Shown piece after piece: positions 2,611 through 60,890 of a stretch of DNA of 64,000 nucleotides. The position numbers and the translations under genes were made by a program. Under the pieces are notes generated by a model, which was given only the letters and a program-made list of their open reading frames with translations, did not search any database and was not told the origin of the DNA. Source of the DNA: Octopus sinensis. Taxonomy: Eukaryota. How positions within the stretch are numbered: the stretch's first letter is position 1; each line of letters starts with the position of its first letter. The DNA is taken from the NCBI RefSeq assembly GCF_006345805.1, contig NW_021825323.1, forward strand, positions 930,001 through 994,000. The letters run 5' to 3'.

Positions 2611-3589
2611 TATTATTATATAGCACTGTCGGAAAATCATAAATTTAATTAAGTTTTCCTTGTGCCACAGCCAGTATCCTCACACACATCCGTTTCCATG
2701 CCCCCTGTTTTTTGCTATAGTCCGTAATGAATCAAGATCGTCCCAACTTTTCAGTCTTTTGTTTACTCCTGTCAAGTCTTCGTTTAACGCGGTAGGTAGA
2801 GTGACTCTAGGTCTTCCACGGAAAGCTCCTTTGGATTGGGCAAAATAGTTTTCCATGGCGATGTTCGGCGGAGCGAGGTTGTCCAGTCTCAATATGTGCC
2901 CAAAAAGTCTCCATCTGGATTCCAGGATGTCCATGGAGATCAGTCTCGAGTTAGATCTGTTGTATAAGGCCGAGTTAGATATTTTTCTTGGGAATTGTAT
3001 GTTCATAATTCTTCTCAGTTGATTTTGATGAAATTGGTTCAAACTGTTATATCAGCTTTGGTGATTCATGTAGATCCATTATACATCAAGACAGGAACAA
3101 TAAACGTATTATATATCTTTAGTTTTGTCTTTGTACTCAGTTTCCTTAATCTCCAAATGTTCAAAATTTTGTTATACGCAGCGATCGATAATATCTTTCT
3201 ATGGGTGATATCTTCAGAGTCACCCAGGAGTGATCCGACTTTTTTTTGCTTTCTCCAGGGCTCATCATGGGTGGGTTCAACGTGAACAATTTTCGTGTAT
3301 TCCGTTTTATTATGATTGACTGTTAGAAACCATTTGGAAAATATATGTGGTAATGTTTCAATAATATACTGAAGGGTTTCAGCGTCTTCAGAAACGAAGT
3401 CGACATCTTCGGCATATATTATTTCATTGTATTTGCTATCAATTCTGAGAATCTCAGTACACCGTTTATATTTTTGACATAAAGCAGCGGTCCATCTGTG
3501 CGTCCAGATAACATCAGCAGTGAACCTTCCAGTTCTGAATCCCCGTGTACTAGCCCGTTTTCACACCTGGTATCTACTAGCCCGTTTTC
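2611..3589 (-). mobile_element. 5'-truncated, internally deleted RTE-like LINE
   Basis: Motifs GFRTGRFTADVIWTHRW, IYAEDVDFVS, VGSLLGDSED, ESRWRLFGHILRL, RGRPRVTLP; (TAA)n-like tail; 10-bp TSD tatcatgaat at 2601-2610 and 3590-3599. Confidence 0.9.
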
Positions 3590-3710: not shown

Positions 3711-5718
3711 ATGAATAATGTTGTCATTTATCACTTACAAAATAGCAAAAGAATGAAATCGGAAAATCTTATGAGATTTCAAACAAAGATGAACTTCTTG
3801 CAATATTTTCTCACACAGATGCAATTATGGAGACCACCGTTTTCAGAAACATCCCCAACTTTATAAAAGCAGGAGGGACACCCACAGAAACCGTAGATCT
3901 GCTAAAAAACAGTTATGTTGGGTATCCTAGATTAAATAATTTACTAATGGAATGGCTACTTGAATTGGGTTATTTTTCCATAAGTTTATTCACAGGAGAC
4001 GACAAGGCTTCAGTCGAATCTACAATTCGTGAGACCTTTGCTGGAATTCTCAAAGAAAAAGTACAATTTAAAGATTTTGATCATCTGACACCTTCTATTG
4101 ACAACCCTCCGACATGGCTTAAAAATTTCATGTTTTACCCGGAATGGCGGGAACTTGTTTATTGTCAGTTTAAGGAAAATCCTTCTAGTAAAGTTCTTGG
4201 TTGTGCAATAAAAGTATTTTTATTATTTTTTTATTTTTCTAAGTATGTCTCGACCACGAATTTTCGGTATGAACTTGATTCGGTAGCACATCTCGTAACT
4301 GAAGATATTGAAATATTTTTTTCTATTTTATCTGACCTACTACGACGGTTTATTGACGCTTCGAATCTTGGAGAAGCTTTCAAAGCTCGGAAGTCTCTTG
4401 TGGTACACTGTTGCTGTTATTCTTACTAGAAACTAGCCAGTTCTAGTTTTCATTCACTTTTGACAGTTCAGTTAGTACTTAGCTCGTTGGCTCATACAAA
4501 TGGGCGGATTCGTGACTGCATAACAGACCTGTCTCACTATGTTTACAAAAATGTGTCAAAACAGTATTTTGTGAATTTATTTCTTAGATTAAATGTATTT
4601 TGTGTTCAAAATATTATTGAACGAGTAAATTTAACTGATTCGGATTTGATGGAAATGACGGTCCAAATGAACGCTGTTATTGACCGAGGGAGTTTTGCGG
4701 ATCTTGATATCAGCAAAGTGGGCATTTCTATTTGTGTACTAAGAAATAGTTTTGCGATATATGCAAAAATAAATCATGAATTTTATTGTATATTTTGATA
4801 GATTGGAATAACAGAGGGTTCAGTGGATGGTCATTGGTCTTGTTCTGTCAAACCTTTTATGGGTTTGGTTAATTTTGTGTTAATGTAGAAATTCTGGTTG
4901 AAGCTATATTCGTTGAGAGATTTTCTTTTCCAGAAAATTCATTTCAATCTTTAATTCAATTTGCTTACAATTTAGACGAGTCAAATGTTATAGATAGTAT
5001 TTAAATTGACCAGGGGACTATGTCAGTCTCAAGTTTCCATGAACTTGTGACGGAGACTGTTGATGTCATGTACAAATCTGAAAAATCTGGTGAACTAAAG
5101 ACAGCATTGTGTTTTTTGAAAGAAAAAAGTCTTGAAACTCCTTTTACGGCATTGGGAATCCTCAGGTGGATTTTTTCCGTCACACGAAAACCAAGTTACT
5201 TTATGATTGAGTCGGAAAAGCCTTTGCATTTATTTTTTATCGACGAAATTGTGGATGCCCACCCATCGCTGCATTATCAAGTCTATTCGGTGCTAATCGA
5301 ACTATTCGAAATTCACTATGATGCCATTGACGTCGGGAACTCTCAGGTATAAACTCAAATGCACATTATTTATTTTTGATAGATCAAACACAGAAAAATA
5401 ATAATCGACAGATTAGTCCATTTGTTGTTTAATGGATTTATTTTTAAAATTTTGTATTATTTTACTGGGAGGATTGCTTCAAAGGACGTTGATTTTTCAC
5501 TCGTTCGTTATTTTGTTAATTCGGTTTTTTGTTGAGTATTAATTGGTAGGTTTTGAAAAATATTAGTCCTCCATATAGTCCAGAGTTCCACCAAGTGTTA
5601 TGTGATATTATCAAATTGTTGGAGCCTTCGGAAAGATCTAATTTTTGTTATAAAACATTTAAGGGTTTGTTCAAATTGAACCATTTTTGTAGACTGGACA
5701 TCTGATACTGCTAATTAA
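3711..5718 (+). CDS. NELFCD: Negative elongation factor C/D (TH1-like), about 548 aa, 11 introns
   Basis: FSHTDAIMETTVF...AGGTPTETVDLLKNSY...NLLMEWL, PTWLKNFMFYPEWRELVY, LFFIDEIVDAHPSLH, IIDRLVHL, ISPPYSPEF. Intron lengths 26,27,30,27,24,84,26,27,36,26,28 give a continuous frame. Confidence 0.88.
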
Positions 5719-11679: not shown

Positions 11680-12089
11680 TTCTTGCTATTCTGACACTAA
11701 TTTTTTTCATTTAAACGTTAAAAATATTGTTTTAGTTATTTAAGTTTGAGTTTCATTCCCATTTTTTGAAAAATATGAATTTTTTAAACAAGGAAATTGT
11801 ATAAGAATATATTCAAACAGATTTACACAAAGATTAAAGACCACATTTTTTCAAAAAATAATCTTGATTTAAAAAAGGAAATCAACTAGAATATTTTGTA
11901 TATGAGACTTAACAGATTTCATGGGAAGCTATAATTCAGTGTTTATTATTTTTAATGTTTTTTCTGTTATGAATTTAAATATTTTTTATATATAATTTAT
12001 TAATTTATAATTTATTGTTTTAAAATAATTTTTAAACAAGTTATATATATATAAGGAAATAGGAAATAAATCTCATTTTTGTTTTTCTG

Positions 12090-12571
12090 ATGGCGAAAGG
12101 TAAATCTAAAATTAAAATTGAATACATTTCTGACAACATTAAACGAAGACAAACGTTAAGCAAAAGAAAACAAGGATTGATCAAGAAAGCTGAAGAATTA
12201 GGGGTTTTAACTGGATCTGAAGTTCTTGTTATTATCTACAGTCCCACCAAAAATATGTATGTGTACAACACTGAAAGATTTAAACCTTTTGTCGACGGCA
12301 AAGATGCCATTTCTACAATTGCACAATGCCTTAACGATAAAAACTTTTCCATGGTTTATTAAGTTAACTTTACTATTTTATATAGAATATATCCGACAAA
12401 GAAATGACTGGAAACTACGACTCCTACGGATATTTAGATAATCTTAATCAAAATTCAAATTATAGTTGTTATTCGAATCATAACTACAACGATTCTTATG
12501 TTCCTGATGCTCAAGACTTGTGCCCTTCGATGTCATCGTGTTATGAACGAGGGTATAATCAAAACTTATAG
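12090..12571 (+). CDS. SRF: SRF-type MADS-box transcription factor, divergent and short
   Basis: KGKSKIKIEYI...RRQTLSKRKQGLIKKAEELGVLTGSEVLVIIYS...FKPFV...IAQCLN matches the SRF/MCM1 MADS and SAM domains; 32-nt intron at 12354-12385; 3' end uncertain. Confidence 0.8.
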
Positions 12572-12899
12572 AGTATTCATTTGATTCAGTGTTAAATAAA
12601 TCGAATTTTAATTTATTAATCCAAATTTGTCAATAGTTTAGTTATTGTGGCGAGAACAAATTTTCGGAACTTTTTGACAGAAATTCTATCTTTTCGGAAC
12701 TATCTCAATCATCATGTAGACACAGTTCCAGCATTTTATTCAGAAGTATGGAGTAGAAATAAAATCCCTAAACATTCATAATTATACAAATACATTTAAG
12801 ATAGAAACCTCATTTTGATAGTAAATTTGTTTTGTTTATGAGGTTGATAAAGTTTTAACAAAATATTTTGTAAAACATACATAGATTTAATATTATTTA

Positions 12900-15668
12900 A
12901 TTGATATTAATCCGACCGTTGTCCGCTGGAGGTTAATCTCCTCTTTTTAGATGATGAAGTAACCAACACCACTCCTTGATCCTCTGTCTCCAAGTTAGTT
13001 ACGACTCTTTTTCCCTCATTCTCCATATTATCTTCGTACGAATGACTTGCTTCAATTAAGAGGCTGCTGGCTCAATTTATCTCCTCGTCAGTGATTCTTA
13101 ACGATTTTAACTGTGTTCTGTGTAAAGAATCAAGACGGTCCATATCGTGTTTAGAGATTCCCCATGTGCCAGAGTTATATTCTCAGCCTGGTATTTAATC
13201 CTATTTTTTGTGATTCCATATAGCCGATATTTTTTCAATGCAGCCATAGCAAGAATCTTCCTGTGTGTAACATCTTCTGAGTCTCCTAGATACGAGCCCA
13301 GTTTCTTTTGCTTTCTCCAAGAGTCGTCGGATTCACGATCAGTACGTGTGAGCATTGTAAATTCCGTTTTATCAGATTTACGGATAAAAACCATTTCGAG
13401 AATACGTGTGGAATTTTGTTAAGAATGTGGTGTAGTGTTTGAATATCCTCGGAAACAAAGTCCAGATCGTCTGCATAAATCATCTCCTCAGAATTGTTTC
13501 CAACGAGAGCTCTGAACTCTCTTAGTGCTGCTTCAAGGTATACAACGAAGAGGACCGGAGAAAGCGAATCCCCCTGTGGGACTCCACGAGAAGTCCGAAA
13601 AAACTTTGAACAGCGTTTGCTAAGTTTGACAGAGAGATGAGTGTTCTGCATGAGCAGGTGTATTATTTTAACGTCGTCAGGGTGAAGAAAACTCTTCAGA
13701 ACTTCAATAAGTTTTCCCCTGTGTATAGAATCAAACGCCCGAGAGATATCAATTCCAAGTATTGCGATAGATTTTTTGTATTTTTGGCATAGAGCGCAGT
13801 ACCATCTGTGCCCCCAAACAATATCAGCAGTAGACCTGCCTGTACGAAAACCACTTTGGCCAGGGGATAGGAATTTGTTAACTTTGTTTTTTATCCGGTG
13901 TAATGCGATGAGGGATAATGTTTTGCGTATGGAAGTTGGTAGAATTATCGGTCTAAAGTTGCAAACGGGGCCTTTAGCTTTCCTGGGTTTATGTAATGGG
14001 ATTAGCCATTCTTTTCCAAGATCCAACGGATTGTCTTCCTGAAGAAACCGATTGAAAACATCAGTAATAATTTTAGCTAGCTCCACTGGTGCGTGTTTTA
14101 TAAGTTCTGCCGGGATATTGTCTGGCCCTGCGGATCTTCCGGTGTTCAACTTTTTAATGGCTTGCAGAGTTTCAGGGAGACTTATTGGGTTTGTTAATGT
14201 GGATTTATCAGGTTTTAAAGGTTTCAGGGTCTGATCAGTTTCAGTATACATATTGAATAAGGAATCAAAGTGCGAAGCTAGAATACTAGCTTTTTCGGCG
14301 TCCTCGGCAACAGTACGATCGAGATTATCGTGGAAAATGATAGGGGGCGTGCACTTCCCTCTGTTGAGGAGGCGAATAGCTTTAAACATCATTGGCCCAT
14401 GTTTGTATTTCATTATTTCGGAAACTTGTTTTTCTGCTTCACTTTTGGCAAGAAATTTTTGTAGTTGTTTCATCTTTGTTAATAATCTTCCTCTCTGCGT
14501 ACGGAGTTCTTTGATTTTCTCAGGTGAGCTTGTATTTTCCGATTGTAGTCTAAGTTCTTTTTGTATTAGAGAATTAGAAAACCGCGGTATTCCGTATTGC
14601 GGTAACTGTTTCCTCCCAGATCTTGTTAGCTGGTTGATTTTGGTCGATACAGTCGATGCTGTTTTTCAGGTCGTACAATATCGAAGCTTGGTGGACTCTT
14701 CGTATCCAAGCCTCTCCATATCGTATCGTACTGGGGCAGTGCCTTTGAGCTTTCCACGTATTCCATGGATTCTGTACAGCATTAACTGAGCCACAACAAG
14801 TTTATAATCGTTGCTGGTTTCAAGTTCACCGTATGACCTCGAGTTTTTCAGAAGGGCCTTTTGATGCTGCCTGCAAAGAATATAGTCTATCTGGTTATAA
14901 ATCGGAATGGTATTTCCAAGTTTATCTTTTCTAAACCCAGTCCAGGTGGTTTTATGCCTTGCCGGGTGCTTGAAGCAAGTATTGCATAAGAGTAAGTTGT
15001 ACGCCGTGCAAAATTGTATCATGGATTCTCCGGGGAGGTTGCGGCGGTTTCTTCCATGAGCTCCAATGCATGTTTCCCCAGGTTTGGCAGTTCCAGCCCT
15101 AGCGTTCCAGTCTCCGGCAACAAACAGTAGGTAAGAAGCGGAAAGCGAGCTGTATACACTCGTGAGGGTCGAATAGAAGTTGTCCAGCTCTTTGTATTTG
15201 TTGAGACTCGCACCCCAGTAGGAGCATATAAATTTATAATCTAAATGAGGATCTTTCGACAGTTGGTCTGCGACTGAAGTCGGCGGATGACCTGGACAAA
15301 CTCAAAGATATCGCGCGCAGCAGAAAATCCTGGTCGAGACTTAGGGAGAGAATGTACAGAACACGGCACAAGGGAGACTTAATTAACTTTATGTTTTCTC
15401 GAAAGTGCTCTTAATAATAATCAGTGATTCTGATCCCATGCCTCTGTTTAACAATCATACTCTCCAGTATTTTCTTCAACACAACTGACTGTATATAAGA
15501 ATGAGTTACGTCTTCGATAGCCAACTTTTCAATGTAGTTCTTAAAAAACTTGGAAACGAGCCCGTCCCAAATCAAAACCAGTGGAATTATTTTTACTTGA
15601 GCGTCGTAAAGAATGGACAACTCCCCTGCCAATAGATCGTATTTATGGCATTTCTCGACCTCGACCTG
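12900..15668 (-). mobile_element. 3' fragment of an R4/Dong/NeSL-like RLE retrotransposon, interrupted by the RTE insertion at 13099-15420
   Basis: QVEVEKCHKYDLLAGELSILYDAQVKIIPLVLIWDGLV...YIQSVVLKKILESM...RITD at 15421-15668 continues in frame as EEIN... below 13088 once the insertion and one TSD copy are removed. Confidence 0.7.
13099..15420. mobile_element. RTE-like LINE (APE + RT) with 5' inversion: about 2.1 kb on - (13099-15240) plus 180-nt 3' end on + (15241-15420)
   Basis: - strand: NLYAPT, NQIDYILC (APE); SGFRTGRSTAD, DISRAFDSI, RGVPQGDSLSP, YADDLDF (RT); frameshifted. + strand: LNEDL...ADDLDKLKDIARSRKSW, UTR, (TAA)3. 11-bp TSD tcagtgattct at 13088-13098 and 15421-15431. Confidence 0.88.
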
Positions 15669-20569: not shown

Positions 20570-22830
20570 CTTTTTATTCTGAACTTTTAAAGCAAATCAA
20601 ACCATCAATTAGCTTAAAATAGCAATCTACTTCAAATTCATGAAAATTTTCACATGCTCAGTTCAAGTTCCTTTTTGCAGTCTGTCGCAGACACTTCAAG
20701 ATACCTTCCTGACTTAATTTGTGTCATTTTCACAAAAAGTCTTTGTTTTTCCCTGGCCAAAATATTGACAAAAGCTGCCAAATTTGGATGCGCTCTGTTA
20801 AAAGAACTGTTCAACAGCTTAATGCCAACCTTCCAATGAATTGGTTGTCCTAGGCATTGACTTTAATACTCGATGAAAACAACTCCAAAAACTGACGTCA
20901 TAAGATGGGTCAGCAATAAATTGTTTTTTAAAATAAATCAAAAAATTCATTATTTGTTGGTTGTTTTCTTTTCCTGGCGCATCAAGAGAAAATTTTCCAA
21001 ATTCCAATAAAACATTTTCCACAGGGATGAAAGCTAAATGGTAGCATTTCCTCAATAATTTTTGTTCCCACCACAATGAAACGTCTTTGTAGGCTCCCAC
21101 AAGACCAAGACATTGTATTTTCCACCATATGATTTGGCCGAAATGGGAATTGTAGCCAAATACATTAGACGACGAAAAAACTGATTTTGTGGAGTTAATT
21201 AACCCCTTTTCAAAATCAATTAAAATACTTGCTGGTGAAGTAGCAAAAAGTGTCTTTATTTCTTCAAATAATGCACAGTAGGCATTTTCTGTTTTGTTGA
21301 GCAAAAGAGCGTGCGCAAGAGGCCAGAATTTACCTAAGTATTTTCTTTTATTGTAATCATTTGTTCGAATGCTTCTTCAGAACACTCAATTAGCAACCAA
21401 CGTAAAAAGTGTCAAACTATTTTACACATCACGGGGCATACCACAAGGCGATCGCTGTCCCCAGTTCTCTTATCGTCTACCTAGAGGCAGCACTCAGAGA
21501 CTTTCGGCCTTTGTGGACAACACTAAATACAACGAAATAATATATGCTGATGATGTCGACTTCGTATCTGATGATGCTGAAACCCTTCGATTTATTATCG
21601 AAACATTACCAGATATTTCCAAATGGTTCTAACAATCAACCACAATAAAACTGAACATACGAAATTTATTCGATTGAACGAACTCATGATGAGCCCTGGA
21701 GAAGACAAAAAAAGTCGGATCTCTCTTAGGGGACTCTGAAGACATTATGCACAGAAAAATACTATCAATTGCCACATACAATAGTTTATGAACATCTGGC
21801 GCTAAAGAAGCTAAATTCAAAGACAAAACTTAAAATATACAACACATGTGTTGTCCCAGTCCTAATGTACAAGGATCGACGTGGGGAATCAGTAAGACCG
21901 ATATGAACAATTTGGACCGATTTCATCGGAACAAACTGAGAAGAGTGATAAACATGCAATTCTCAAGGAAAATAGCAAATTCCACCCTATACAAAAGATG
22001 CAATTCGAGACCGATCTCTATGGACATCCTGGAGTCCAGATGGCGACTCTTTGGACACAATTAAGACTTGACAGCCTCACTCCGCCGAATATCGCGATGG
22101 AAAACTACTTTGCCATTCCAAAGGAGACTTCCGTGGAACCAGGGTCACTATGGCTACCACGCTAAATGAAGATCTAGCTGGAATTAATAAAAAACTGAAA
22201 AATGGCGATGATCTCGACTCACTCAGGACGATCGCAACTGACCGAGAGCCTGGAGACGCATGACCGGGAGAATTTCAATGGTGGCACAAGGAAAGCTAAT
22301 AACTTATGACTTTTCCGAAAGTGTTTATATAATAAATAATTTGTTCGAATTGATTAGGCACGTTTTTAAAGGTACCATCAATAACCCAGACATCTGATTT
22401 TCTCAAAATGTCAACCTGATAATCCGAACAAAAAATGACGTAACGATTTGCATCATTAATTCCAGAATCCTTGCGGTAAAAAATTTCGCCCCGATCATTA
22501 TACCACAAACTTTCAGGAATTTCAGGAATGGTCAGAACAAAATTTGGTATCAGTGTTTCTCTTTCCCGTTGAACAAGACGAGTCAATGAACGTTTTTTTG
22601 GCAGGATTTTAATGACGTCAACATTGGCTCCAATGAGGCTTCTTAACACCACATTTATAGTTCTGTCTTTTGACGCCTTTGCGGCATCTTTCATGTCAAA
22701 AACTAATTTCATGCTTTTTATCTCATGATCCCCAAAGGGTCCATGATTATGAGCATTTTTGTGCTCAACTTGTTTTTAGCATTCACCATGCACCTCGTCC
22801 TGCATTCTCGATTTCTTGCATTCGGTTTTC
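20570..22830 (-). mobile_element. Mutator-like (MULE) transposase pseudogene interrupted by an RTE insertion
   Basis: HNH zinc-finger end, WVIDGTFKNVPNQFEQ joined to MITI..YLGKFWPLAHALLLNKTE, ILIDFEKGL, HFGQIIW, RTTNSLEGWH, HPNL. Confidence 0.85.
21371..22338 (+). mobile_element. 5'-truncated RTE-like LINE inside the MULE transposase
   Basis: RGIPQGD, IYADDVDFVS, VGSLLGDSED, ESRWRLFGH; AT-rich tail; 12-bp TSD atttgttcgaat at 21359-21370 and 22339-22350; closely related to 2611-3589. Confidence 0.92.
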
Positions 22831-37545: not shown

Positions 37546-38897
37546 CTATAATGGCTTATAGTCCAACTTGCTTTCCAATTTCTTGTTAGCAGAAATTTTT
37601 CTCACAGCCTTCACAAAGTCATCCATTATGACGTAATCCCTGTCTTCCTTAATTGCGAACATTCCTTTAGAATATTTCTAACTGAATTCTACCAGCTTCC
37701 GTACAGACATTCCTCAAATCAGCACCGTTAAAGTTCTCTGAAAGTTTAACAATCCTCTCCCAGTCTAAAATCACCAACAAAGCACAACCAACAAATCCAT
37801 GAACTGTCATTTTGGACGCGTGAATATTAATTATATGCAACCTGGCATGCTGGTTCGGCAAAGGAATTTCTATTTTCTTATCCAATCTACCAGGCCTTAG
37901 TAAAGCAGGGTCCAGTGTATCGGGCCTGTTAGTGGCCATAATCAACATAACCTTCGACAAAGAATCAAACCCATCAATTTGATTAAGCAACTACAAATTA
38001 AAAAAGATGAATTAACCTCCATTAGAGTTCTCTGTATTTCCCTATCAGCAGATGTCCCTTCAGAGAATCTTCGTCCCCCTAAAACTAAATACTGAAAGAC
38101 ACCAATTGCATCAATTTCGTCTATGAAAATAACAGAAGGACTGTTTTCTCGTGCAAATGAAAACATATCTCTGATTAGACGCGAACTCTCCCCAATGTAC
38201 TTATCAACAATTGCACTGGCCACGACTTTAAGGAAATTGCAGTTTATTTGTTTGGCTACAGCCCGAGCTAAAAGTGTTTTTCCAGTTCCAGGAGGGCCGT
38301 AGAGAAGAACCCCTTTTGGAGGCTTCATTCCTACACGAACAAAAATATCTGGATTGACTATTGGCAGTTCAATGACCTAAAAATCAGATTTATTAAGACC
38401 TCTCGAAGTTCCCTTATCTGATCACTGAGTCCACCAATGTCTGTATATGACACATCCCCAGGCTTTTCGACTGACATGTTGTAAACTAAAGGATCCACTT
38501 CTGTAGGGAGAGTTCTCATAATCACGAGGGTTGAGACGTCTAATGCTACTCGCCCAACAATTGAGGATTTGTCCAGTTGACGGCGACAGCCCACCACATA
38601 TCGAGGTCCGTTAGCAGCCTTTACTACAACTGAGAATATTATATGTTTTAATACATGTTTCCTCGTCCAACTTACGGAGAACTTCCCCTACGATTTGGCC
38701 GACACTTTGAAGAGCTTTAAGTCCATTCTCAGTTTTGTCAAATTCATCCTTTAATACTTTGTATTCTTCTCGCACTTTATTTTAGAATATTTTGAATTAC
38801 ATTTTTTTACGTTTTTGTCCATTTTCATGTGATTTCCCAATGTTCGCCTGTAGTTTACAATTACTTGTTCACGTGTGTTTGATACTCGAGGAGGCAT
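37546..38897 (-). CDS. PSMC6: 26S proteasome AAA-ATPase Rpt4
   Basis: [76 protein letters not shown]; introns of 26,25,23,24,26,24,28 nt. Confidence 0.97.
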
Positions 38898-40011: not shown

Positions 40012-43000
40012 ATGCTTCTACGTTACTCAATGCTATATTTTATTTTATTCAGTAAACTATTTTAATTAAAAATTCAGTTTTATTAAAATGTGAAAAAGAA
40101 AATTCCAACTATCTAAAAATATGTATTAAGTCAAATTGTCGACAAAAAATCAAATTCAGGAAAATTACAAATAATAATAATATTTCCGACAAACTGTACT
40201 CTCGAAGTTAGAATATTTTTTAGAAAAACAAGTTCAGATAGTTCTACAAGACCTACAACAACAGAAAACAATATTCCAACTCGATTAACTATGACGAATA
40301 ATGTCACATCAATTAATACAGTTCCAAAAAACACAACAAAATATTCGCCCAATTTGAACAATAGTCTTGTTATTAATCCGATAGAAAAACAAACTTCAAA
40401 TATATTGTTTCAAAATAAGTGGAATTCTTGGAAAATAATAAAAAATTGTTCTAAAGAATGCGGATATGGAGTTTTTGAAGTTTTGAAAAAGCGGATTATA
40501 AACAGTACTATAGTAGAAAGTAGAGAAAAAATCCCATGCATAAAACAACATTGTCCTAGTTATACTTTTATTGTCTTGTATTTTAAAGGAATTGATGGGA
40601 AATGGAGTTCATGGAGTAATTGGTCAGAATGTTTTTTATTTAGTTGTTCTGACAACGAAGTCAAATACCGACAACGTTATTGCAACAATCCAAGCCCTCA
40701 AAACGGAGGGAAAAAATGTAAAGGCGATAAATTCCAAGTTATGCCGTGCATCGACGGCTGTAAAATTGAATCTGGTTTATTTACGATGGAAGAAGATGGG
40801 AAATTATTCCAACGTATGTGAAAATTTTATAATTTCAGAGTTTAAATATTGCCAGAAAGATACGGAATCAAATATTACATGGCCACCAACTCCGATAAAT
40901 ACAACAATTTATCTAAAGTGTCCAGCAAATAAAACTGGTTTCCCATTTTAATGTTATAAATAAAGGAAAAATAACCAGAGAATGTAACCTTGCAGGAGAT
41001 TGGTTGATTCCAGATTATTCTGATTGTTCTAATGTTGTTGTAAATAATTATGATTCTAATGTAATATAAAAAACCATGTGAATAATTTATAGTTTGAGAA
41101 CGAATATTATTATGAAAATTTCACAAAATTAATTCAATGTCTTAATATAATCAAAAAAGAATGTCAATTCTTTAATATTTTAAGCTCTTTGGAAATGAAA
41201 AGATGTCTAAACGTTAGCAGAAAAATGTTTATGCTCCATATGGACAACAATAAGAGTCTTTCATACAATTTAATAATAGAATATCTGAAAGTTGCTTTAA
41301 CTTTTTTTAATTCTAGAATATTATTTTAATCGAATCAGTGAGTTTAAATAAATATCAATATTTGCGTTACGTATTTAAAGTAACTTTTATACAATAATAA
41401 ATTTTTTAGTCAGAAATAATTGAAGAATCTAAAATTTACTATTCTTTTTATCTAATAAACAAAGCAATGGAAAGATTGCTATATTATTACAATACCAAGT
41501 GCGAATTTTATTCAGATGATAATCTCAGTTTTTTAATATTTAAAAAATAGTAGAAATTTGTTATCTTTCTACTTCCGTAATTAATTTTAACGGAATTTTC
41601 ATAACTTCTAACCCCGAATTTTCATCATTTAATGAGCCAGATATGTTAGACAATGCTTATTCGACAATTAAAGTAAATAAAAAACTTCTAAAAAGATCTT
41701 CATTAGGTTGAATAATTAATAAATTAATTTTAGGATTTACAAACTATGATAAAATTAAAATGGCGGTTTATATTCAAAGTACCTTTTCCAAAAATATAAA
41801 ATACTTTTACGAAACAGAAAATGATAAAATTGGGCTGTTTTTTAATTTAATAATTATAGAAACATAATTGTTAATTCGGATGTGATTGGATTTCAGACAA
41901 TACCGACGTTATCAAAACAAGATTATTTGAATTCTGGAATTGAAATGCAATTTAAAACTTATTTGGTTTCAGTATGACAAATTATATTTTAGAAAGGCTA
42001 CAAGTCCAGATGTAGTCGTTTAGAGACCATAAACCACTTGCAGTTAATTTTATGAATTTATTCAAAGACAATGGAAAAAAGCAAATTGTTCGATAGAAAC
42101 TAATCGAGAAGGATATATGTGTAAATGCAATAAGCAAGGAGTTTATGCCATTACAAGTGATTTGTCAGTTAAAATTGTGATTTATAAAATAGATGCTTAA
42201 CATTTTTATTTAGATTAAAAATGAAGACGATGATTCAATTTATGAGATAATAATTTTGCATCTACTATCAACAACATTTTTATTGATAAGTCTTTTAAAT
42301 TTATTATTAATAAAGTATTCTGATAATTTTTTTCAGAGTTCAAACTGAACGTACATTTTCTCAAATAATGAAAACATTTTGTGCATTTACAGTTAATATC
42401 ATAATTGTGATTATTTTCTTCGACAAAATAAATCAACAAGTAAATTTATAATTGTATTTTTAAGACTATTCACATTCTCTCTTCTATATCTCTTCATTAT
42501 TGCCTTCTTTGCATATCAGGATGGAATGTTTGTGTAATCGTCAGCAACATAAGAAAAGTAATATGAACTAGACGATAAAAATAGTTCTACGCTTTAGATA
42601 TGAAATGCCAAACACTTAGCGTTAAAGAATATTACGGAATTATTGGATTTGCAATACCGGTGATTCCCGTTGCGGTTACATTTATGCTGACTAGTTCCTA
42701 CATAAGTCATAACTAGTCAATTTATGTAATTAAAAAATAGTCACTGGTCAGACAAGTTTGATATATCATGGAGTGTTAAAATTCCATTATTATTTTTTGG
42801 AATAGTAATATGCAATCTTATTTAAATTTAAGATCCAATTGATTATGATTTTCTATACAGTTATATGTCTTAAAAATATGAAACATGAATCAAAATGCAC
42901 ATTCAGATATGAACTATGGTGGTTATTTTTATGAATATTAAAATTCAGTAAGAGAAATTTAATTTATGATGGACTGAATTCTTTTTTTTCTTACCTGTGG

Positions 43001-44099: not shown

Positions 44100-47000
44100 T
44101 CAGATTCTAAAAAGCTTCTTGGAGAGGCTTTTCAACTTATTAAAGACATAGGATTCGAGATTTTCAGAACATCTATAAAACACGGAATTTTGCTGATGGT
44201 ATGTTCTGCAGTTCACAAACAGTTTGTTAAGGTCGGCAGTGAATTCGTCGATGAACTTGTAGTGCCCACTATTAGCCCGTTCTTCGATGACAGTCAAGTC
44301 TATTAAAATAGTGACAAAGAACAAACCAATAGGCTCGGATATGATATCAAAATAGTCAGGAAATTCAGCTCCAGAAACAGGATCAATAAATGGCCAAGAC
44401 ATCTTATGAAGCTTAATTTCCCCCACAAATGAAGCCAGAATTGAGTGATGTTCTGGAGTAAAAGGACTTCGATGAGGAACTCCAGTGTCATTCTCATTGC
44501 GTGTACGACAAGACACGCAATTGTAATTCTTCAACATAGTTGCATCCCCTTTGGAAATTCCTACACACTCATAGTGGAACCATTCTTCACAAACAGCACA
44601 GGATATATAATCACTAAATTAACCAATAAAAAGATATTTACAACCGGTAATCAAACGGCTTCCGACACATGCAGTAAAGACGATTCTCACGAGTCCTTCG
44701 CTTCCTGGAGGACTTTGGCTGGATTTCCTCAACAACAGGTTTAGGCTGTCTTTTGGGAGTTTTCTTGGGAACTGGAGCTGGAGGTTTTCGCGGAACTCCC
44801 CCATTGCATTCATCACAAATATATGACTCAATCTTCTCTGCCTCTTCCTCAGTCAGCTGAACGCACGACCCATGAAACCAATTCTTACACTTATCACAGC
44901 CAATGTAAAATCTGTAAAATAATTAAAAATAACTATACTTAGTATTATCATATGGAGTACGACAAACACAATACACATCTCCGACGTCCTTTGGAGCATT
45001 TTCCATGGTAGTACTGTGTCTATTCGAAGACCTTTCAACTGTTCTAGCCTCCTTCTTCTCTGGTTTTATCTTGGAAGTCGTAGGCTGTGAAGAATTATCA
45101 AGAGCCTTCTGAACTTCTGACTAAAGAAGTAATGACGACAAAAAAAACAAACTTTGACTTCTCGTCGAATACTTTGTTCTGTCATTGTCCTCTTGCGAAT
45201 TATAGATCTTTTTAGACTTTCTTTTTGTTTGTGTAGCTGACTCATAATCCGCTGACTTATAATCTTTCTTTGACGAACTGAGGACGAATCAACATGCGAT
45301 ATTCTACGCCGAGAATTCTTCTCATGTCTCTCGACTTTCTCCAACATCATTTTCATAACATTACAGCACGTTTGGCGTCTAATTTGTAGAATAGAGTTAT
45401 CCATACAATTGGTTAGTTTCGAAACTGTCAGCAGGATTGATCAAATCAGCCTCAAGAGAGAGCATTGACTGATCATAAATTGAATCGCCTTCAAATTTGT
45501 CCACAGAACGCATACTCAACTCGTAATGGTTGAGAAAAAATTTGACAACATCAGGATCAGATTTGTAGTATTCATACAGACGTTGTTTGGCTTCAGGATT
45601 GTCGGGATTCTGTGTATATTGTTTCACAACTGCACATAATTAGGAAACCTCCAAAACCTAGTTGAACTGACTTATTGAGTGGAGACATTTCCCAGTCTTC
45701 AAAATTTCGTATTAACCTCGTGGCAGTACGGATATGACGAGATGTCTACAAATTAATTTACTCGGGTCAACTGCGTGACTGTTTTCACCAAATTTTCTAT
45801 GCTGGGACTGATATCCCTTGTGGCCTTGGTAGTCGAAACAGACCTTACTAGTCCTCTAATGTATAAAAAGGGCCATATCATACCGAGGGAGTCAACCCTG
45901 GTTCATATGCGGGCGCGTATGAGTCAGGACGGTTTTGAGTGACCAACCGAAATTTACCATCCGGGCCTTCAACCAATTTTTGACCTGATTTTATTAAATT
46001 TAAAACCAAACTAACCGGCTTTTAAGCCATGAACTTCTGATATTCCATCTTTATTTTTAATGACTCTAATTTTTTGTCGGCCTACAAAATATTTCAATAC
46101 ATAAAAAACAACCATCCCCATCCTGAGCAGATTTAACTGGCACAGCAGTCTTGGCTGAATTCTGAATACTTTGTCTTTGTAAATATATAAAAGTTACCGT
46201 TCATGGAATAAACGAATTTGCCATAACTGGAGAGTTTCCTCCGCAACCCATTCACGGACTTCATAGGATTCATCCATCTTCATTCCATCCCCCAATGGAC
46301 GCTGCCGGGAGGAAAATTTATAGTAATCATCTAAAGTTAATAAAAAGTTACATACCTCGATCATTGCCATATGAAGGCTGGAATCCCTTCAATACAAGAT
46401 ATTCGACTTTTTCTCCATGTCGAGATCCACCATGTTCTGGCCTCCTTTCAAGAATCTCAGTAGTCAAGGTCCCGTTATCAATTGGAGTTACACAACACCC
46501 ACTGGACGGAGCTTGTTCATTCATTTGATTCCATCTAACAAAATATTAGAATACTTACAGACCTAATACAAGTAAAGAATATTTTTAATTGGAGAGAAAA
46601 TGCAGACAACGACTGGACAGTCTGAACTCGATATCTCCAGCCAACTCCAAACGAAGGCCGAGCAAATGGGCCCGGCCAGAAAAGGGAGGAAACTCTCTGA
46701 TCATAATTAAATCCACTGATCTGACGTAATCCGCCACGGCGACACATTCTGGACTGATAACACACACACTACCGAGTGTGCTCTTTCTGGGGAAGAATAA
46801 AAATGCTTTGCTTCTCTCCCTGCGTTGAAAAACGATGAACCTCCGCTAAATGTTGGGCATCGACAGTATTTTCAGTAGACTCGAGTTTATTTGTTAAGCA
46901 TTGCTTCTGATCAGTGGGTGGAAACCACAAAATCATTAACTAAAGAAAATTACAGCGATTATTTTACATTATAAAGACCATTACTAAAACTCTCCTTGTC

Positions 47001-53220: not shown

Positions 53221-55402
53221 TATTATTATTATTAAAGCAATCTCGCGGAATCAAAAAGTTAATTAAGATTACACTTTTGCCATCCGACTCAGGATACGCT
53301 CTGTTAGTCGTATCCACGCTCCCCTGTTACGTGCGAGGTATCTCAGTTCGTCCAGATCATCGGCCGATTTCAGTTTTCTTCCAATCGACGTGAGATCATG
53401 GTCGAGCGTAGTCGGTAATGTTGTTCTTTGTCGGCCCCTATATGCCGTTTTATTTAATGAGCAGAAGTACAGTGCCTGACAAAAAAATTGGATTTGTAAT
53501 AAATCGACTTTTTTTAAAAATAAATTATAATTTAATTTTCTTACATCATTCTTGGCAAAATTATAATTATTTTTTTAATTTTTAAAATTATTTTTGGTTT
53601 TTAGAATTTAATTTTAAAGCAGAATTTAAAATTTGCCGGACAAAAAAATTGGATTTTCGTATAAATGAAGCGTAATTCAAAAATCCATTTATCTGATTTT
53701 ACAAAAGGAGTAATAATTAGATAGTACTCTTCAGGAAAAACAATTGAAGAGATATCTAAAATACTGAAAATTCCCAGATTGACCGTAAGATTTGTGACAA
53801 GAAAATTTTCCAAAGAAGGCACCACTACGCGAAAAATTAAATCTGGGCGTTTACCGAAACTCTCTTCAGATCAAAAAAACACAATACAATTAATCTCGAG
53901 GGATGAACCCTCAATTTCTGCTGTGTCTCTTTCTGAGATAGCAAAAACTCAATTTAATGTGGACGTATCTCCCAGAACAATTGGTCGTATACTAGATTCA
54001 TTTGGATTACATGCCCGAGTTGCAAAACACAAACCTCTTTTAACATCAAAAAACATCAAATCCAGATGGTTAATTGCGAAAAAGTTTTTAGCCATATCTG
54101 ACGAAGAATGGAAGAAAGTCATCTTTTCCGATGAGTCATGTTTTGAGGTCTATAACAGCAAAATAAGGATCTATAACAGCAAAAAAAACGGTACTGCCTA
54201 TGAATAGTCCAATATCGTACCTACTGTTAAGTATGGTGGAGGAAAGTTATTGGTTTGGGGATGTTTCTCATATGAAGGCGTCGGTAATCTTGTTATTATA
54301 AATGGAAAAATGAACAGTGCTTATTATTTAAACATTTTGTCGAATAATCTGAAGCAATCAGCTCTAAAAATGGGGTTAAACTCATTTATTTTTCAACAAG
54401 ATAATGCTCCATGCCACAGTTCCCGAGTAGTTAAATATAAAATTCTTGATTGGCCGTCTCAATCACCTGACCTTAATCCATTGAGCATGTTTGGGCAATG
54501 ATGAAGAGAAAATTATTGCAAAAACCGCCGAAAAACTTGAAGGATTTGGAGACAAAATTAGTTGTGATATGGGAGTCAATACCGAAAAAATACCTAGAAA
54601 ATTTAGTTATGTCAATGAAAAAAAGAAGTTCGGAAGTTTATGAAGCACGTGGAGGGATTTTAACTTATAAAATTTTAATTTGTTTCATTAAAATAAAAAA
54701 TCCAATTTTTTTTGTCCGGCAAATTTTAAATTCTGCTTTAAAATTAAATTCTAAAAGACAAAAATAATTTTAAAAAATAAAAAAATAATTCTAATTTTGC
54801 CAAGAATGATGTAAGAAAATTAAATTATAATTTATTTAAAAAAAAGTCGATTTATTACAAATCCAATTTTTTTTGTCAGGCACTGTAGGATTCTATGTTC
54901 TGATTAGCCGGCGTCATTTCCGAGGCTCTTAGGACATGTCCAAAGAACATCCACTTCGTGGACATCACTTTCTTTGCAATCTCGGATGTATGGGTAATTC
55001 TGTAGAGTTCATTATTGGTCATCTTTTTGGCCAGTGATTTCCCAGGAGTAGTCGTAGTTGTTTTCTGTGGAAAGAGTTGAGCTGCTCCAGTTCTTTAGCG
55101 GTTAGGCCCCAGGTCCCCGCGTTGTAAAGCAAGATTGGTTTGACAAAGGAGTTGTACAGCCGAATTCGAAGGCGGGTTCCTATGTACTTGCGCCTCATCC
55201 AGATCGTCCACATTTTTTTGAAGTATGCAACAGCCAAAACTTTCCTTCGAATAACGTCCTCCGAGTCCCCAAGGAGAGATCCAACTTTCTTGCATGTTCT
55301 CCACTTCTCCTCGTTTCTCGTCCCCAGGCGGGATATGGTAGTTCTTTCCGTTTTGTCCGGGTTTATTACAAGGGACCAGTCTTTCAACGAATGAGGGATC
55401 AC
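53221..55402 (-). mobile_element. 5'-truncated RTE-like LINE hosting an IR/DR Tc1
   Basis: KKVGSLLGDSED, LYNAGTWG, WMFFGHVLR, ESY|FCS..YRGRQRTTLP (frame restored on removing the Tc1); (TAA)n tail; 12-bp TSD tttagcattgat at 53209-53220 and 55403-55414. Confidence 0.92.
53470..54885 (+). mobile_element. Tc1-like transposon with about 190-bp IR/DR-type TIRs, defective transposase
   Basis: TIRs 53470-53657 and about 54697-54885; TA on both sides; 18-bp direct repeat gacaaaaaaattggattt at both ends of each TIR; VIFSDES, VWGCF, FQQDNAPCH, SPDLNP; stops and a frameshift. Confidence 0.95.
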
Positions 55403-56462
55403 TTTAGCATTGATAGACAAACAAATCGGATAGAAAATCTTTTTGTTCTAATCATAATAGATCTATGTCATTTTAAACAAGTTTTTTTTAAAAACGTGAT
55501 AATTTTAATGAACATTTCCTTGCACTTTTTAGCCTAGAAAACGTCAACCATTTATAGTAAATTAAAAGATTTTTTCTTTCGAAAGATAACAATACCTGAG
55601 AAACTGCCACTTTTATTACGCCATAAAAATATTTTTTGTGGATTAAATTAAATGACTTAAATTTCTGCGTCCCTCGCTTTTTACAAAAACAATCAGAATC
55701 AGTATGGTAAGAAACTTAGGTCTTTTTACAAGAAAGCGCACTGTTAGCTTTTAGTAAAAACTATAGACGTAAAAATGTTGATTTTGAAAATATTTTAATT
55801 TAGACCTATAATTAACATGACTCGACTAAAGTGGCTGGTCACCCAGGGATCAAACAAATCTTCAGGCGTTGATTGGGTAGAATGAGATTCAGAAAGAATT
55901 ACAAAAAATAAGATAATATTTTTATTTTTCAAAAGAGTCTTTATGTTATATTTGAATCTTTCTATGAATAACGAAAATATTATTATCGATTTTTGAGAGT
56001 AAACCAATAAAAAACTTAGATTCCTTCAAATCTGCCGACTAACCATTAAAATTAGACAGAAATAAGAGCATTGTCACATAATTGATTGACTTTTAAGAAA
56101 TATAATACTTTGCACAGCATGGCTTTTTTATTGATACAAAAAACTGCCATTCAGCGAAGACGATGAGTGCTATGAGATTTCACATGTACAGACACGTTTT
56201 CAAAGTCAAGTATCTCCAGAGGACGCAGTAAACAAGGTCGAGGGTTTGGAAACCAAGAAAATGACAAACTATCGCGGACCACCATCTTTTTGCCTCCGTC
56301 GTATTCAAAACTTCAAGATCGCTGAAACACGCATGACAAACTTTATCCATGATATCGAAATAAGAATTGCTTTTCAAAGATATGAACATCGGGGATCTAT
56401 CGGAGAATTTTGGCGGAACATTTCCGCGCACGGTTAATTCTTTCTTATTTTTTTATATAAAC

Positions 56463-57900
56463 AATTATTATTATTATTATTTAAGCTAAACAAAATCACC
56501 GTCTTAACCATTAACTAACGTTCAGGTGATTCCGACACTTCTCAACAGTCGAGCATTCTTTTCACGATGTTCCCACCGTGACCCCACACACTTTCTGTAT
56601 GTAAGGTGAATGGTTTGTGGTCCATTTCCACGATCCCCCCCATTTGCCTCTACGAGAGACTCCAGTGTTCTATGGACAATTTCCCTATCGGTATGGTATT
56701 GATAAAAACTGGAGAAAAAAAGGAAACTGGGATCTCTACTTGGTGATAGTGGGGAAATGATGTATAAAAGAGTCCTAGCTAGTGCAATGTATAAAAATGC
56801 AAAAATATGGAGTCGACCAAATGTAGATTGTGGGAGAAAAGGAAGGCTTTTGCAAAATTTATCTTCTTTATACAGGTTGATACGATCGATTCTACGTGAG
56901 GTGAAAAACAGAGGAAAGTATCAAAGGTTACTCCCAATATCTTCTGTGTTTTCTTTTGTGGTATTGGAATTCCGTTCAACGTGACATCAATAGTTTTCGT
57001 CCCCACCTTCCTATTTTTCGTGAATAGAGTGACTGCTGACTTTTCGGAACATGCATGTAGTCTGTTTTCATATAGCCATCCATATAAGTCGTCCAGTATT
57101 CTTTGTAGTCTTTCCTTCGCGTATTCGACATTTACATCCCTAGATGCGACAACTATGTCGTCGGCATAGGAGAGTAGTATGTCATTATTATCCATAGGAA
57201 CCGGGAGATCATTCAGAAACAAGTTGAAGAGGGTCGGGGATAAAGGAGAACCCTGAGGTACACCATTGGGCAATAAGCGTGATCTTGAACTCTCGTGCCC
57301 GACGCACACTTTCCCACGACGTCCGCTCAAAAAATTCGCTATCCATAGCTTCATAGGTGTAGAAATATTTGTACCAAATATCTTTTGAATTAGGATCTTC
57401 CTTGGGACGGAGTCAAACGCTTTTTCAATGTCGATAGTGCATACAATCGATTTCTCCTGCAATTTCTTCTTTTTGTGTCCTTCATTTATGAAATCTGTTA
57501 GTGTGGTAAGGAAGGAGGTCGTTGACAATCCTTCCTTGAATCCATGTTGGAATGTAGATTGTGGGAGAAAAGGGCGAATATGTTTTAGGACCAGTTTTTC
57601 CAAGATTCTTGACAACACACATTTAAGGGATACTGGTCTATAGGAGCCGGGGTCGTTCTTCGGTCTTCCAGGTTTTAATATTGGCCAGATTTTTGATAGT
57701 TTCCATAAGTTCGGTATAGAGTTCGTGATTAATGACGTGTTATAGATCGTGGTTAAAGCATTTATTGAAACAGGGCCCAAGTGTTTTAGTAGAATAAGTG
57801 GAATTCCATCCGGTCCACATGAGTTTGTTTTCTTCTGATTCGAGATTGTTTCAGACACCTCTTCAGGAAGAAAATAAGTCGTCGGGGCCTTTTGGATGGC
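56463..57900 (-). mobile_element. Jockey/I-like LINE RT fragment with internal deletion
   Basis: CGPDGIP, SYRPVSL, QHGFKEGLST, IDIEKAFDSV, GVPQGSPLSPTLFNLF, SYADDI, KILGVTFD; (TAA)n run at about 56464-56480. Confidence 0.88.
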
Positions 57901-58582
57901 TTTGATTTTAATCTTGGCTGTGATTTGATTTTAATCATGTATAACTTTTATAATAAAATGATAGCTTTTATAACTTTTATAATAAAATTGTGTATTCTTT
58001 TTAACTCATTTTCTATTAATTATTTTCATAACTTCAAATAAATATTAATGAAACTGCATTTTAATTGAAAAATGTCAAAATTTATGTGGAAAAAAATGAT
58101 GAGTCTATGAAAGAAATATGGATTTTTTCTGCAATAAGATATAAATGATTATTTTGTGGTAGTTTCCTACTTCTTAGAAATGATTGATTAGCCGTAATTT
58201 CAATAAAATTGACTAGTAGATTCTGATTAGTATAAATGCACTTTCATTTTTTACTCGTTATTAAAATTATCATGTCGACGAGGAAAGAGCATTCTTTGAC
58301 CTCAAAAACGAGTTGTAACGGTCTAATAAAAAGGTAAAAGTTATGGAGAGATTTCTAAATTGCTGACATTACCAAAAAGTACTGTTTGGAATATTATTAT
58401 CCATTAGAAACAACAAAGAACTGTTATTCATCGACCAAAATCAGGTGCTCCGAGACGTTCTTGCTCACTAATTAAAATAATAGTTTTGGAATATTTTAAC
58501 AATAATAGTTGGTTTAAGGAAGCCAAAAAACATTCATTAATTGGAAACAATTTGCTATGAAGAATGGGGAAATATTAGTCAG

Positions 58583-60890
58583 ATGCCGTCTGGTCCCGAA
58601 GATGGATATGTGCCGAACAAATAAGAACATATTGATAAAAACTGGAGAAAAAAAGGAAACTGGGATCTCTACTTGGTGATAGTGGGGAAATGATGTATAG
58701 AAGAGTCCTAGCTAGTGCAATGTATAAAAAATGCAACAAATATGGAGTCGACCAAAGCTAATCAAAGCATAGCTACGAATAAGATTATACAACTCGTATA
58801 TAAAGCCAGTACTTGTGTAAAACTCGGGTACATGAGGAGTAACAAAGTTAGAACTCAGGAAAATAGGCACATTTTATCGAAAGCGATTACTTGGCCTAAA
58901 TTGACAAAAAAGATTTCCAACAAGAAATTATACTCTATATCAGGCCTGGCCAACCCAAATCGCATCGCGGGCCACTTTGTCCAAATGAATCCTTTCCGCG
59001 GGCCGCATATACATGTACATACTAAGGATAGATATCAAAACAACACAGATAAGATTTTATTTAGTAAAATAGCATTCAGTCCAATTATACGTATCAATGA
59101 GAAATCTGTTTTTCTTTATCTTCACTTAATTTTTTCAAATCAACTTCACAATTACTAGTTGCACATCTTAATTGGTTTTCTAAGTTTTTATCTGTTAAAG
59201 AAGATCTATATCTACTTTTACTAAACTTTAATTTTGAAAAGAATGATTCACATACGTAAGTAGATCCAAAGGAGCTTACAACTCTTTGTGCAAAAATTCT
59301 TAAGTTGGGACATTTTTCTGCAGTCACATATTTGTTATAAAAGTCAATTTTGGATATAGTAGGATAAACAAGTCTTAGTTCACTGTTGCACTGTAGGTCA
59401 ATTATTTCCGTCTGCAAAGTATTTGAAACAATAGAAACGTCAACATGAAATGGAGAAGAAAATGTTTCAAACATTTTCTCATATTTTTTTAGTTCCGAGA
59501 ATCGACTGTCAAATGCTGCAGCAAGATTTTTTATTTCATCAGCGTACTTGAAGAAATTTTTACAATGGCTGATTTTAAATTGATTTAGCGTTGGAAAATG
59601 TTGATCATTTCCATTTCTTATTTGACATTCAAACAATGACAATTTCATTCGAAATGCTTTGACTTGATGGCATGCATTAGTAATCAAATTATCCTGTCCT
59701 TGTAACTCCTTGTTTAATTGATTAATTTTTTCGGTTATATCTACCAAAAAGCACAGATCTAGCATCCATTCTTCATCATTTAATTCAGTTAATGTCATTT
59801 TCTTATGCATCATAAAACTTTTGATTTCTTCTCTCAAGTCGAAAAAACGTTTTAAACATTTTCCGCGACTCAGCCATCTGACATTGGAAAAATACACAAG
59901 ATCACCATAGTGAGAATATAACTCGTTCAATAATTCTTTAAACTGGCGATGTTGAAGTGCATGAGAACGAATGAAGTTTATAGTTCTTACAACCACACTC
60001 ATAACATGGTTCATAGACAACACTTGCGCGCACAAATTGTGTTGATGTATCAAGCAGTGTATTACAAATAAATCATTTTTTATCTAAAAAAACTGCGACC
60101 ACTTCGACAAAAGTACCGAATTTAATAGTCTTTGCTGATTTCTCAATTCAGATTTAAGCGAATCCAGTTTCCTTGTTTTCAATTCCTTACTAAATTTCGC
60201 GTATTCGGAATGCTTTGTTTCATAATGTCTTCTTACATTGTACTCTTTCACCACCGATACTTTCTCCTTGCAAATTAAACATGTTGGCTTGGAATTATGC
60301 ATTATAAAAAAGTAATCTTCTTCCCAATGATTGCTGAATTGCCTGTTTTCTTCAAAAATTTTCCTTTTCTTCATATTGATAACAGCTACAAAAATAGATA
60401 AACTTTAAAATTTATTAAACTTATAAAATTTATCTTTATTTATTAAACTTAAGAAAAATTTATCTTGAATGTATTTATAGGTTAACTACATACAAAATTT
60501 CTCTCGCGGGCCGCACCAAACTCCATCGCGGGCCGCATGCGGCCCGCGGGCCTTGGGTTGGCCAGCCCTGCTCTATATGATACAATCGGTTCCAATAAGA
60601 ACTGAAATTATCGAATCAAGATGGAGGCTATTTTTAAATATACTTAGAAAGGACATTAACACTTCCGCAAACATTACAATGGACAATTACTTTGACAATG
60701 AAAACAGAAAATTGTTCGAAGAAAGACCTAAATTTACTCTCCCTGTTGTTCTAAACAAGAATCTTAATAAAATTGGAAAAAACCCAAATGTGCGGACGAC
60801 CTAGAAGAACTATGAAAAGACGCAAAAAACAGATAAAGAAATTTGGTGAATAGAATCTCGAAACGTGTGCCACGAACAGAATCTTGATTA
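58583..60890 (+). mobile_element. Degenerate RTE-like LINE hosting a hAT element
   Basis: DAVWSRRWICA, KLGSLLGDSG, WPK..KKISNKKLYS, then after the hAT IIESRWRLF..PKFTLPVVLNKNL. Confidence 0.8.
58941..60570 (-). mobile_element. hAT transposon, Buster/Charlie/SPIN (GTF2IRD2-like) group, internally deleted
   Basis: TIR cagg(c/g)ctggccaaccca; 8-bp TSD ctctatat (58933-58940, 60571-60578) with central TA; PTCLIC..RRHYETKH, HCLIHQHNLC, VRWLSRG, FGSTYVCESFFS; gcgggcc subterminal repeats. Confidence 0.95.

Follow-up and report, generated by a model that had tools for sequence, protein, structure and literature searches.

How can a retrotransposon come to lie with its front reversed and its 3′ end in the normal orientation, both parts enclosed by one target-site duplication (TSD)? 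The question is raised by a locus in a 64-kb stretch of DNA (G000:C1794:930001-994000; hereafter the window), where an earlier note had described a 2.1-kb minus-strand APE-RT segment and a 180-nt plus-strand 3′ end with (TAA)3 as an RTE-like insertion with a 5′ inversion of the twin-priming type. Our analysis reproduced this layout (Table 1), and we put at about 0.8 the probability that the locus holds a single dead insertion of a ~3-kb, single-ORF APE-RT LINE of RTE-like type, the front of which was inverted within one TSD by twin priming. The twin-priming model for 5′-inverted L1 is said to go back to Ostertag and Kazazian in 2001.

Table 1. Parts of the inverted insertion and of the host repeat that it interrupts (window coordinates).
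Feature	Position	Strand	Remarks
Host repeat, 3′ part	12887..13098	-	C terminus of an RLE-type non-LTR element present in many copies
Left TSD, TCAGTGATTCT	13088..13098	+	3′ end is the putative second primer; last T common to the element
Inverted 5′ segment of the LINE	13099..15240	-	Family positions 2538 to 367
Inversion junction	15240..15241	.	Parts meet without filler and overlap by 0-2 nt; 214 nt of family sequence (RWSLFGHVLR...RGRPR region) missing
Non-inverted 3′ segment	15241..15411	+	ORF end and short 3′ UTR; starts at family position 2754
(TAA)3 tail	15412..15420	+	Tail common to related copies
Right TSD	15421..15431	+	Second copy of the 11-mer
Host repeat, 5′ part, same ~450-nt RLE fragment	15421..15668	-	

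The 11-mer that brackets the insertion occurs exactly twice in the window, allows no further extension and leaves the perfect 11-bp TSD of the earlier note exact; the chance of an 11-mer repeat ≤3 nt from both element ends is ~2e-5. An empty site lies on the same contig, in a paralogue (G000:C1794:1232262-1233181) that is 95% identical to both flanks and joins them through a single 11-mer. Flanks of the host repeat were found at 28 loci, with the left flank present in 20 (15 distinct places): the exact 11-mer occurs once in 11 of the 15 places, two have one mismatch and two have deletions. Since the 11-mer is single at the paralogue and at most of the flank places, we regard the duplication as a true TSD. 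It may originally have been 12 bp long, because the base just before the left copy is G in the window and A in 20 of 20 flank rows. At a distance of 290 kb on this contig, locus L082 (G000:C1794:1230762-1234444) carries a 95%-identical second copy of window positions 11921-13098, including a MADS-box gene and lacking the insertion, which represents either a duplication or a second haplotype.

What the insertion interrupts is itself no more than a 3′ fragment, ~450 nt long, of an element of RLE type. The claim that excision restores the host reading frame holds at the rejoined site, but in the window copy a stop follows a few codons on, where the paralogue reads through. A longer copy of the host repeat (L083) carries what we take to be a CCHC-type knuckle and a PD..D..E motif; searches with the host RLE protein gave no PDB match at E 10.

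Within the insertion, the inverted segment (2,142 nt) is 5′-truncated in the APE domain and continues through the RT and thumb as far as the residues HRTQLKSL. It matches RVT_1 over 13286-14665 (E 6e-29) and is dead, interrupted by indels and by an in-frame stop (14666-14668). On the family map, the forward segment together with most of its tail (15241-15418) corresponds to positions 2754-2931, and the stretch missing between the two parts measures 214 nt in place of the ~250 nt previously estimated; uninverted sequence in L075 and L062 runs continuously from HRTQLKSL through the missing stretch to the same 3′ end. Both segments come from a common family and not from different subfamilies, as their identities to 12 other copies holding both parts are correlated (Spearman 0.75, p = 0.005). 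The 3′-most end of the inverted piece adjoins the upstream TSD, as had been noted, so that the outer breakpoint falls at the edge of the TSD and does not extend past it as in a post-insertion inversion. Read support consists of assembled short-read contigs at the inner junction, where a 213-nt contig from run X1—which may be the assembly’s own sample, and whose contigs leave 13070-13096 without cover—spans 15131-15342 with one difference and crosses 15240/15241. The outer junction is thus neither bridged nor contradicted by X1, and contigs of runs X2 and X3 cover neither junction. We consider the window copy to be a dead element within a dead element, with no likely function.

What kind of element this was is clearer from its relatives. 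In a search of the same genome, no intact copy of the window’s own family (family A) was found among the matches listed; the related family C has an intact single ORF of 981 aa (L204:2281-5223 and L291:1072-4014) that matches Exo_endo_phos and RVT_1 in Pfam. Because such intact ORFs occur beside many copies that are 99–100% identical, family C is, as judged from its sequences, probably still active. In all families, the element has a short 3′ UTR and ends in (TAA)n, not poly(A). The family proteins show no C-terminal cysteine motif and gave no Pfam match to RNase H or zf-RVT; elements of the RTE clade lack a C-terminal CCHC knuckle and RNase H. At 35 target sites, T accounts for 55% of bases at positions −15 to −6, against 37–41% elsewhere (raw frequencies), and the TSD opens with A at 20 sites and with T at 15. 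The accessible part of one study of RTE-related elements (PMC6007223) gives as their insertion signature a T stretch ~10 nt upstream, a TSD that starts with a tail base and a TSD length of 7–15 bp; the present families resemble these elements in their TSDs of ~9–16 bp, in a T-rich stretch about one turn upstream and in TSDs that open with a tail base. They are likewise similar to AdLINE3 and the Caenorhabditis elegans RTE, as portrayed in the available portion of PMC5850137, in being ~3 kb long with one ORF of ~980 aa, APE and RT domains and a tandem-repeat tail.

Phylogenetic analysis of the RT was less conclusive. A tree without named RTE references placed families A–C in a clade of 15 rows (100/100) together with Phytophthora and unnamed proteins. 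As to the sister group of this clade, a quick RT tree leaned towards the BovB-like rows and a second tree towards the RNase H/other side (82/55), and AU tests of the two placements gave p 0.43 and 0.46 (5,000 replicates); the zf-RVT-bearing protein P0237 and two neighbours split off at 99.9/100. Over the whole protein, the match to P0216, presumably a BovB-like protein, had an E-value of 5e-65, against 2e-17 for L1 ORF2p. The RT here falls in a well-supported clade of its own, apart from the BovB-like group. Assignment to the L1 clade was rejected, given that there is no ORF1, no C-terminal CCHC and no poly(A), and that the RT is distant from that of L1 ORF2p. As the RTE architecture and target signature match, while the RT trees leave clade membership unsettled, we term the element RTE-like, in its build and in its way of working. 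The RT clade of families A–C, which also takes in proteins of Phytophthora and a large number of unnamed ones from metagenomes (see P0038, P0052 and P0202), is apparently an unnamed LINE lineage with a patchy distribution.

The genes in the window are densely packed and of animal type, with candidate introns of only 22–30 nt (within 3746-4429, 12352-12385, 37942-38376, 40117-40821 and 44100-44618); a contig of run X3 leaves out a further one, which is 32 nt long and bounded by GT..AG. Host genes on this contig include RPL10 and PSMC6. The window belongs to an assembly of 2.7 Gb, and the nearest named relative of the RT is labelled Octopus sinensis. Dicyema japonicum, which belongs to a genus of octopus kidney parasites, has a mean intron length of 38 bp and 36.7% GC, according to the accessible part of PMC6736024. 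Because the introns here measure 22–32 nt, we infer that the contigs likely derive from a co-sequenced dicyemid-like parasite, which would then be the host of the LINE families. Other mobile remains in the window include three more related RTE-like insertions, none of them inverted (2612-3542, 21368-22335, and 53228-53469 with 54885-55405, the last split by a ~1.4-kb insertion), an RT from a different clade (56779-57930), MULE-like pieces with a weak Pfam match, split by a family C insertion (20819-22775), and what we assume to be a transposase-like ORF (59094-60083).

The structure in the window is not a solitary case. The earlier note had proposed a genome-wide count of TSD-bounded inverted copies, and our own-genome search brought to light at least 13 inverted insertions, each independent of the others, spread over five related families of ~3-kb LINEs; 11 are bounded by TSDs. 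Counts were based on the best 40 candidates per search, clustered by downstream flank before their junctions were inspected. Families A, B and C map to 2.9–3.0 kb and are joined by two further relatives. Families B and C are young (97–100% identical within each family); family A is old and rearranged, its copies being 84–95% identical to the window copy. Among the matches listed, inversion affects 5 of 18 insertions in family A, window included, in a search biased towards that family’s inverted window copy. The least biased query, the last 111 nt of family B alone, gave 5 of 30 among the matches listed, or 4 of 29 once the copy that had seeded the search was left out; for family C, searched with two queries of which one, at 901 nt, is biased towards copies without an inversion, the figure is 1 of 36 among those listed. 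Comparison of 4/29 with 1/36, again among the matches listed, gave a Fisher p of 0.16. The two other families contributed one inverted insertion each and were not used as rates. Copies only 80–86% identical, which belong to other families, were left out of the rates (L212 for family B; L312, L318 and L335 for family C), and L266 and L278 were merged into one insertion. Some flagged loci were rejected: L259 and L309, where the adjacent piece belongs to another family, and L263, whose antisense scrap (35 nt) originates 1 kb downstream of its truncation point.

TSDs of 9–14 bp enclose 11 of the 13 inverted insertions (window, L062, L064, L330, L290, L256, L325, L329, L308, L318 and L217), L063 having a doubtful ~6-bp TSD and L271 no clear one; in 25 non-inverted copies, TSDs are 9–16 bp long. 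The 3′-most end of the inverted piece adjoins the left TSD in every one of the 11 TSD-bounded cases. Four inverted insertions recur on two to four separate contigs (L061/L062; L064-L067; L057/L058; L290/L323/L324) and so are not read artefacts. The inverted piece extends to the element’s first base in four insertions. Three mini-insertions (L330:3624-3775, L329:4280-4474 and L271:4189-4493) consist solely of the inverted first 56–87 nt and the last 76–250 nt of the element, and two of them have perfect TSDs of 12 and 14 bp. Second starts within the first 100 nt of the element make up 2 of about 11 events retrieved without a query from its 5′ end, a possible excess (p about 0.04, estimated by hand).

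These observations bear on whether the inversion arose during insertion at all. That an ordinary insertion was later altered by a chromosomal micro-inversion, or that the structure is an artefact of assembly, might be suspected from the age and rearranged state of family A and from homopolymer indels in the assembly. We nevertheless hold this to be very improbable: a later event would have had to place its outer breakpoint at the TSD edge in 11 of 11 cases, the structures are repeated on allelic contigs, inversions are found in the young families too, and the inner junction of the window copy has the support of a short-read contig that runs across it.

By contrast with a later rearrangement, twin priming would produce the inversion in the course of integration. 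The endonuclease would nick both target strands 11–12 nt apart; the bottom-strand end would prime on the (UAA)n tail and copy about 180 nt, and the top-strand end would anneal to the RNA at a point ~214 nt further upstream, from which it would copy 2.1 kb in the other direction, halting in the APE region. The two cDNA ends would then be joined, and repair would fill in the duplication.

If the top-strand end anneals before extension, the 3′ end of the left TSD should overlap with the antisense element. In ten events, this overlap is 1 (window), 2, 3, 1, 3, 3, 0 (L325), 4, 4 and 2 nt, making 23 nt against 6.97 expected (p = 5.8e-5), or 22 against 6.27 with the window omitted (p = 6.3e-5); an overlap of at least 2 nt is seen in seven of the ten, against 1.65 expected (p = 2.6e-4). 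The null was two-sided, letting matches arise by chance to either side of a cut whose position is not fixed, and L063, L271 and L318 were excluded. This excess shows annealing of the top-strand end, with the partner left unspecified. In the window itself, the upstream junction has 1 nt of exact microhomology, which has a chance of 0.44, and a 6/7 match 3 nt away (1.5% background) was spotted post hoc. With an overlap of 1 nt only, the priming signal rests on the set and not on the window copy; the microhomology that the earlier note had suggested seeking at this junction is significant over the ten events together, though not for the window copy alone. Moreover, plain 5′-truncated copies show a mean overlap of 2.1 nt (18 of 22 scorable), against 2.3 nt for inverted ones, and because the two overlap equally, microhomology does not separate RNA priming from DNA end-joining.

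At the inner junctions, gaps of 1, 11, 18, 41, 49, 61, 212 and 214 nt occur in 8 of the 13 insertions, overlaps of 13 and 20 nt in two, and gaps of 2.7–2.8 kb in the remaining three (L330, L329 and L271). In every one of the 13, the source of the inverted piece lies upstream of that of the forward piece; the pieces share no sequence in 11 and share 13 or 20 nt in the other two. That the inverted piece had an RNA and not a DNA template is suggested most directly by these duplications of 13 and 20 nt and by starts that almost abut; its synthesis would have been the work of the element’s own RT.

Some inner junctions contain fillers that copy nearby sequence (L062:5858-5868, L057:1484-1501 and L217:3277-3316), drawn from the end of the TSD or a local fold-back, from the downstream flank, or from the first ~33 nt of the forward piece; fillers are also listed for L330. 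They resemble what we understand to be the templated insertions of polymerase-theta-type joining and point to host repair at the joining step. In L064-L067, a ~390–400-nt piece of another high-copy repeat (421 candidates) with an A-rich tail lies exactly at the inversion junction, through either a later insertion or capture during integration; the notion that this 390-nt stretch was the element’s 5′ end was rejected once it matched that repeat.

Could host repair have made the inversion itself? A long first-strand cDNA or duplex might have broken and had its 5′ part rejoined in flipped orientation through microhomology-mediated joining, an account with which the templated fillers, the equal overlap at inverted junctions and plain truncations, and the internal deletions seen in many copies would all agree. 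It would, however, demand a break and a flip that lost only 1–61 nt, or created a 13–20-nt duplication, in 8 of the 13 cases, and the duplicated stretches are more simply explained if one stretch of RNA was copied twice; the TSDs, too, are intact and of normal length (9–14 bp against 9–16 bp in the 25 non-inverted copies). We thus judge an inversion made by repair to be unlikely.

The spacing of the two starts also bears on how many RNA molecules were involved. If each target end had primed on a separate RNA molecule of the family, insertions such as L330, L329 and L271, which join the inverted first 56–87 nt to the last 76–250 nt and skip 2.7–2.8 kb, would be readily understood, and inverted snRNA/L1 chimeras have been attributed to such a route in the accessible part of PMC4476161. 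Yet start points lie ≤214 nt apart on the family map in 10 of the 13 insertions, which independent molecules would not yield, and the two segments of the window copy share their nearest relatives, making the use of two templates highly unlikely. More improbable still, to the point of being negligible, is a snap-back in which the first cDNA folds and primes antisense synthesis, as described for R2 transgene insertions by R2 proteins in human cells (PMC11371274, in the part available). Such an origin is conceivable for the 35-nt antisense scrap of L263 and for the short palindromic filler seen in L062, but snap-back duplicates sequence of the forward piece, whereas the inverted piece in the window lies wholly upstream, 214 nt away; since the two pieces do not overlap, fold-back of the first cDNA is refuted for this copy, and the upstream origin of the inverted pieces excludes it for the other twelve insertions as well. 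Twin priming on a single RNA accordingly remains our preferred reading, and the proposal that an RTE-clade element primes from both target strands is retained for the priming, at the probability given at the outset, and relaxed to RTE-like for the clade, which the RT trees do not settle.

Twin priming itself is known; to this the present locus adds a count at family level, an empty site, a junction signal that was put to a statistical test, and source elements that are intact. As in human and chimpanzee L1, to the extent that the accessible texts describe them, a single TSD encloses an inverted 5′ piece and a forward 3′ piece, the upstream junction shows a short overlap, and the inner one has either a gap or an overlap of ~12–20 nt; gaps and ~12-bp overlaps are given for human L1 inner junctions in the available part of PMC12016303. 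The same text puts 5′ inversion at 18–22% of human L1 insertions and that of PMC2912911 puts it at 31% for L1, and the family B rate (4 of 29 among the matches listed) comes near these values. In contrast to L1, the elements here have a single ORF, lack both ORF1 and a C-terminal CCHC, end in (TAA)n in place of poly(A) and live in an invertebrate host, and three events capture just the extreme 5′ and 3′ ends; furthermore, inverted L1 copies have longer overlaps than truncated ones in the accessible part of PMC2912911, whereas here they are not longer.

A cell-culture survey of L1, ZfL2-1 and Nimb-2_DR (PMC4245944) reports, in its accessible sections, inversions in L1 in human cells and one of Nimb-2_DR in chicken cells, proposes that inversion requires an overhang of 10–20 nt and concludes that it depends on L1 features together with human host factors. 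The 9–14-bp TSDs seen here fit the overhang of that proposal; as a contrast to the conclusion, as worded in those sections, inversion recurs here in five non-L1 families of a non-vertebrate genome. In a non-exhaustive search of the main texts of the literature, no report of 5′ inversion was found for RTE-type elements, and the only other non-L1 inversions were the single Nimb-2 case and the R2 snap-back; the available portions of PMC3747384, PMC13295347, PMC5389967 and PMC13367326 contain nothing on inversion in RTE or other non-L1 elements. The earlier note, too, held that such priming is rarely reported outside L1.

To date, 5′ inversion has been regarded as peculiar to L1 in mammalian cells. 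Its recurrence, bounded by TSDs, in five single-ORF families argues that nothing more is needed than a suitable timing and spacing of the second nick, and implies that in such elements the second strand can be cleaved before reverse transcription has ended. A wider reading, which we offer tentatively as possible though not quite probable, takes three propositions jointly: that twin priming is general to APE-type LINEs with nicks about one helical turn apart, ORF1p, poly(A) and mammalian factors being dispensable; that a minimal RTE-like enzyme, likely of a dicyemid parasite, twin-primes at near-L1 rates; and that priming at the extreme 5′ end of the RNA gives rise to inserts of ~170–310 nt made of the two RNA ends only. 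If true, such inserts would mean that the RNP holds both ends of the RNA at the target. The intact young copies, with their 981-aa ORF, offer a small one-protein system for second-strand nicking and priming, the poorly understood half of LINE integration.
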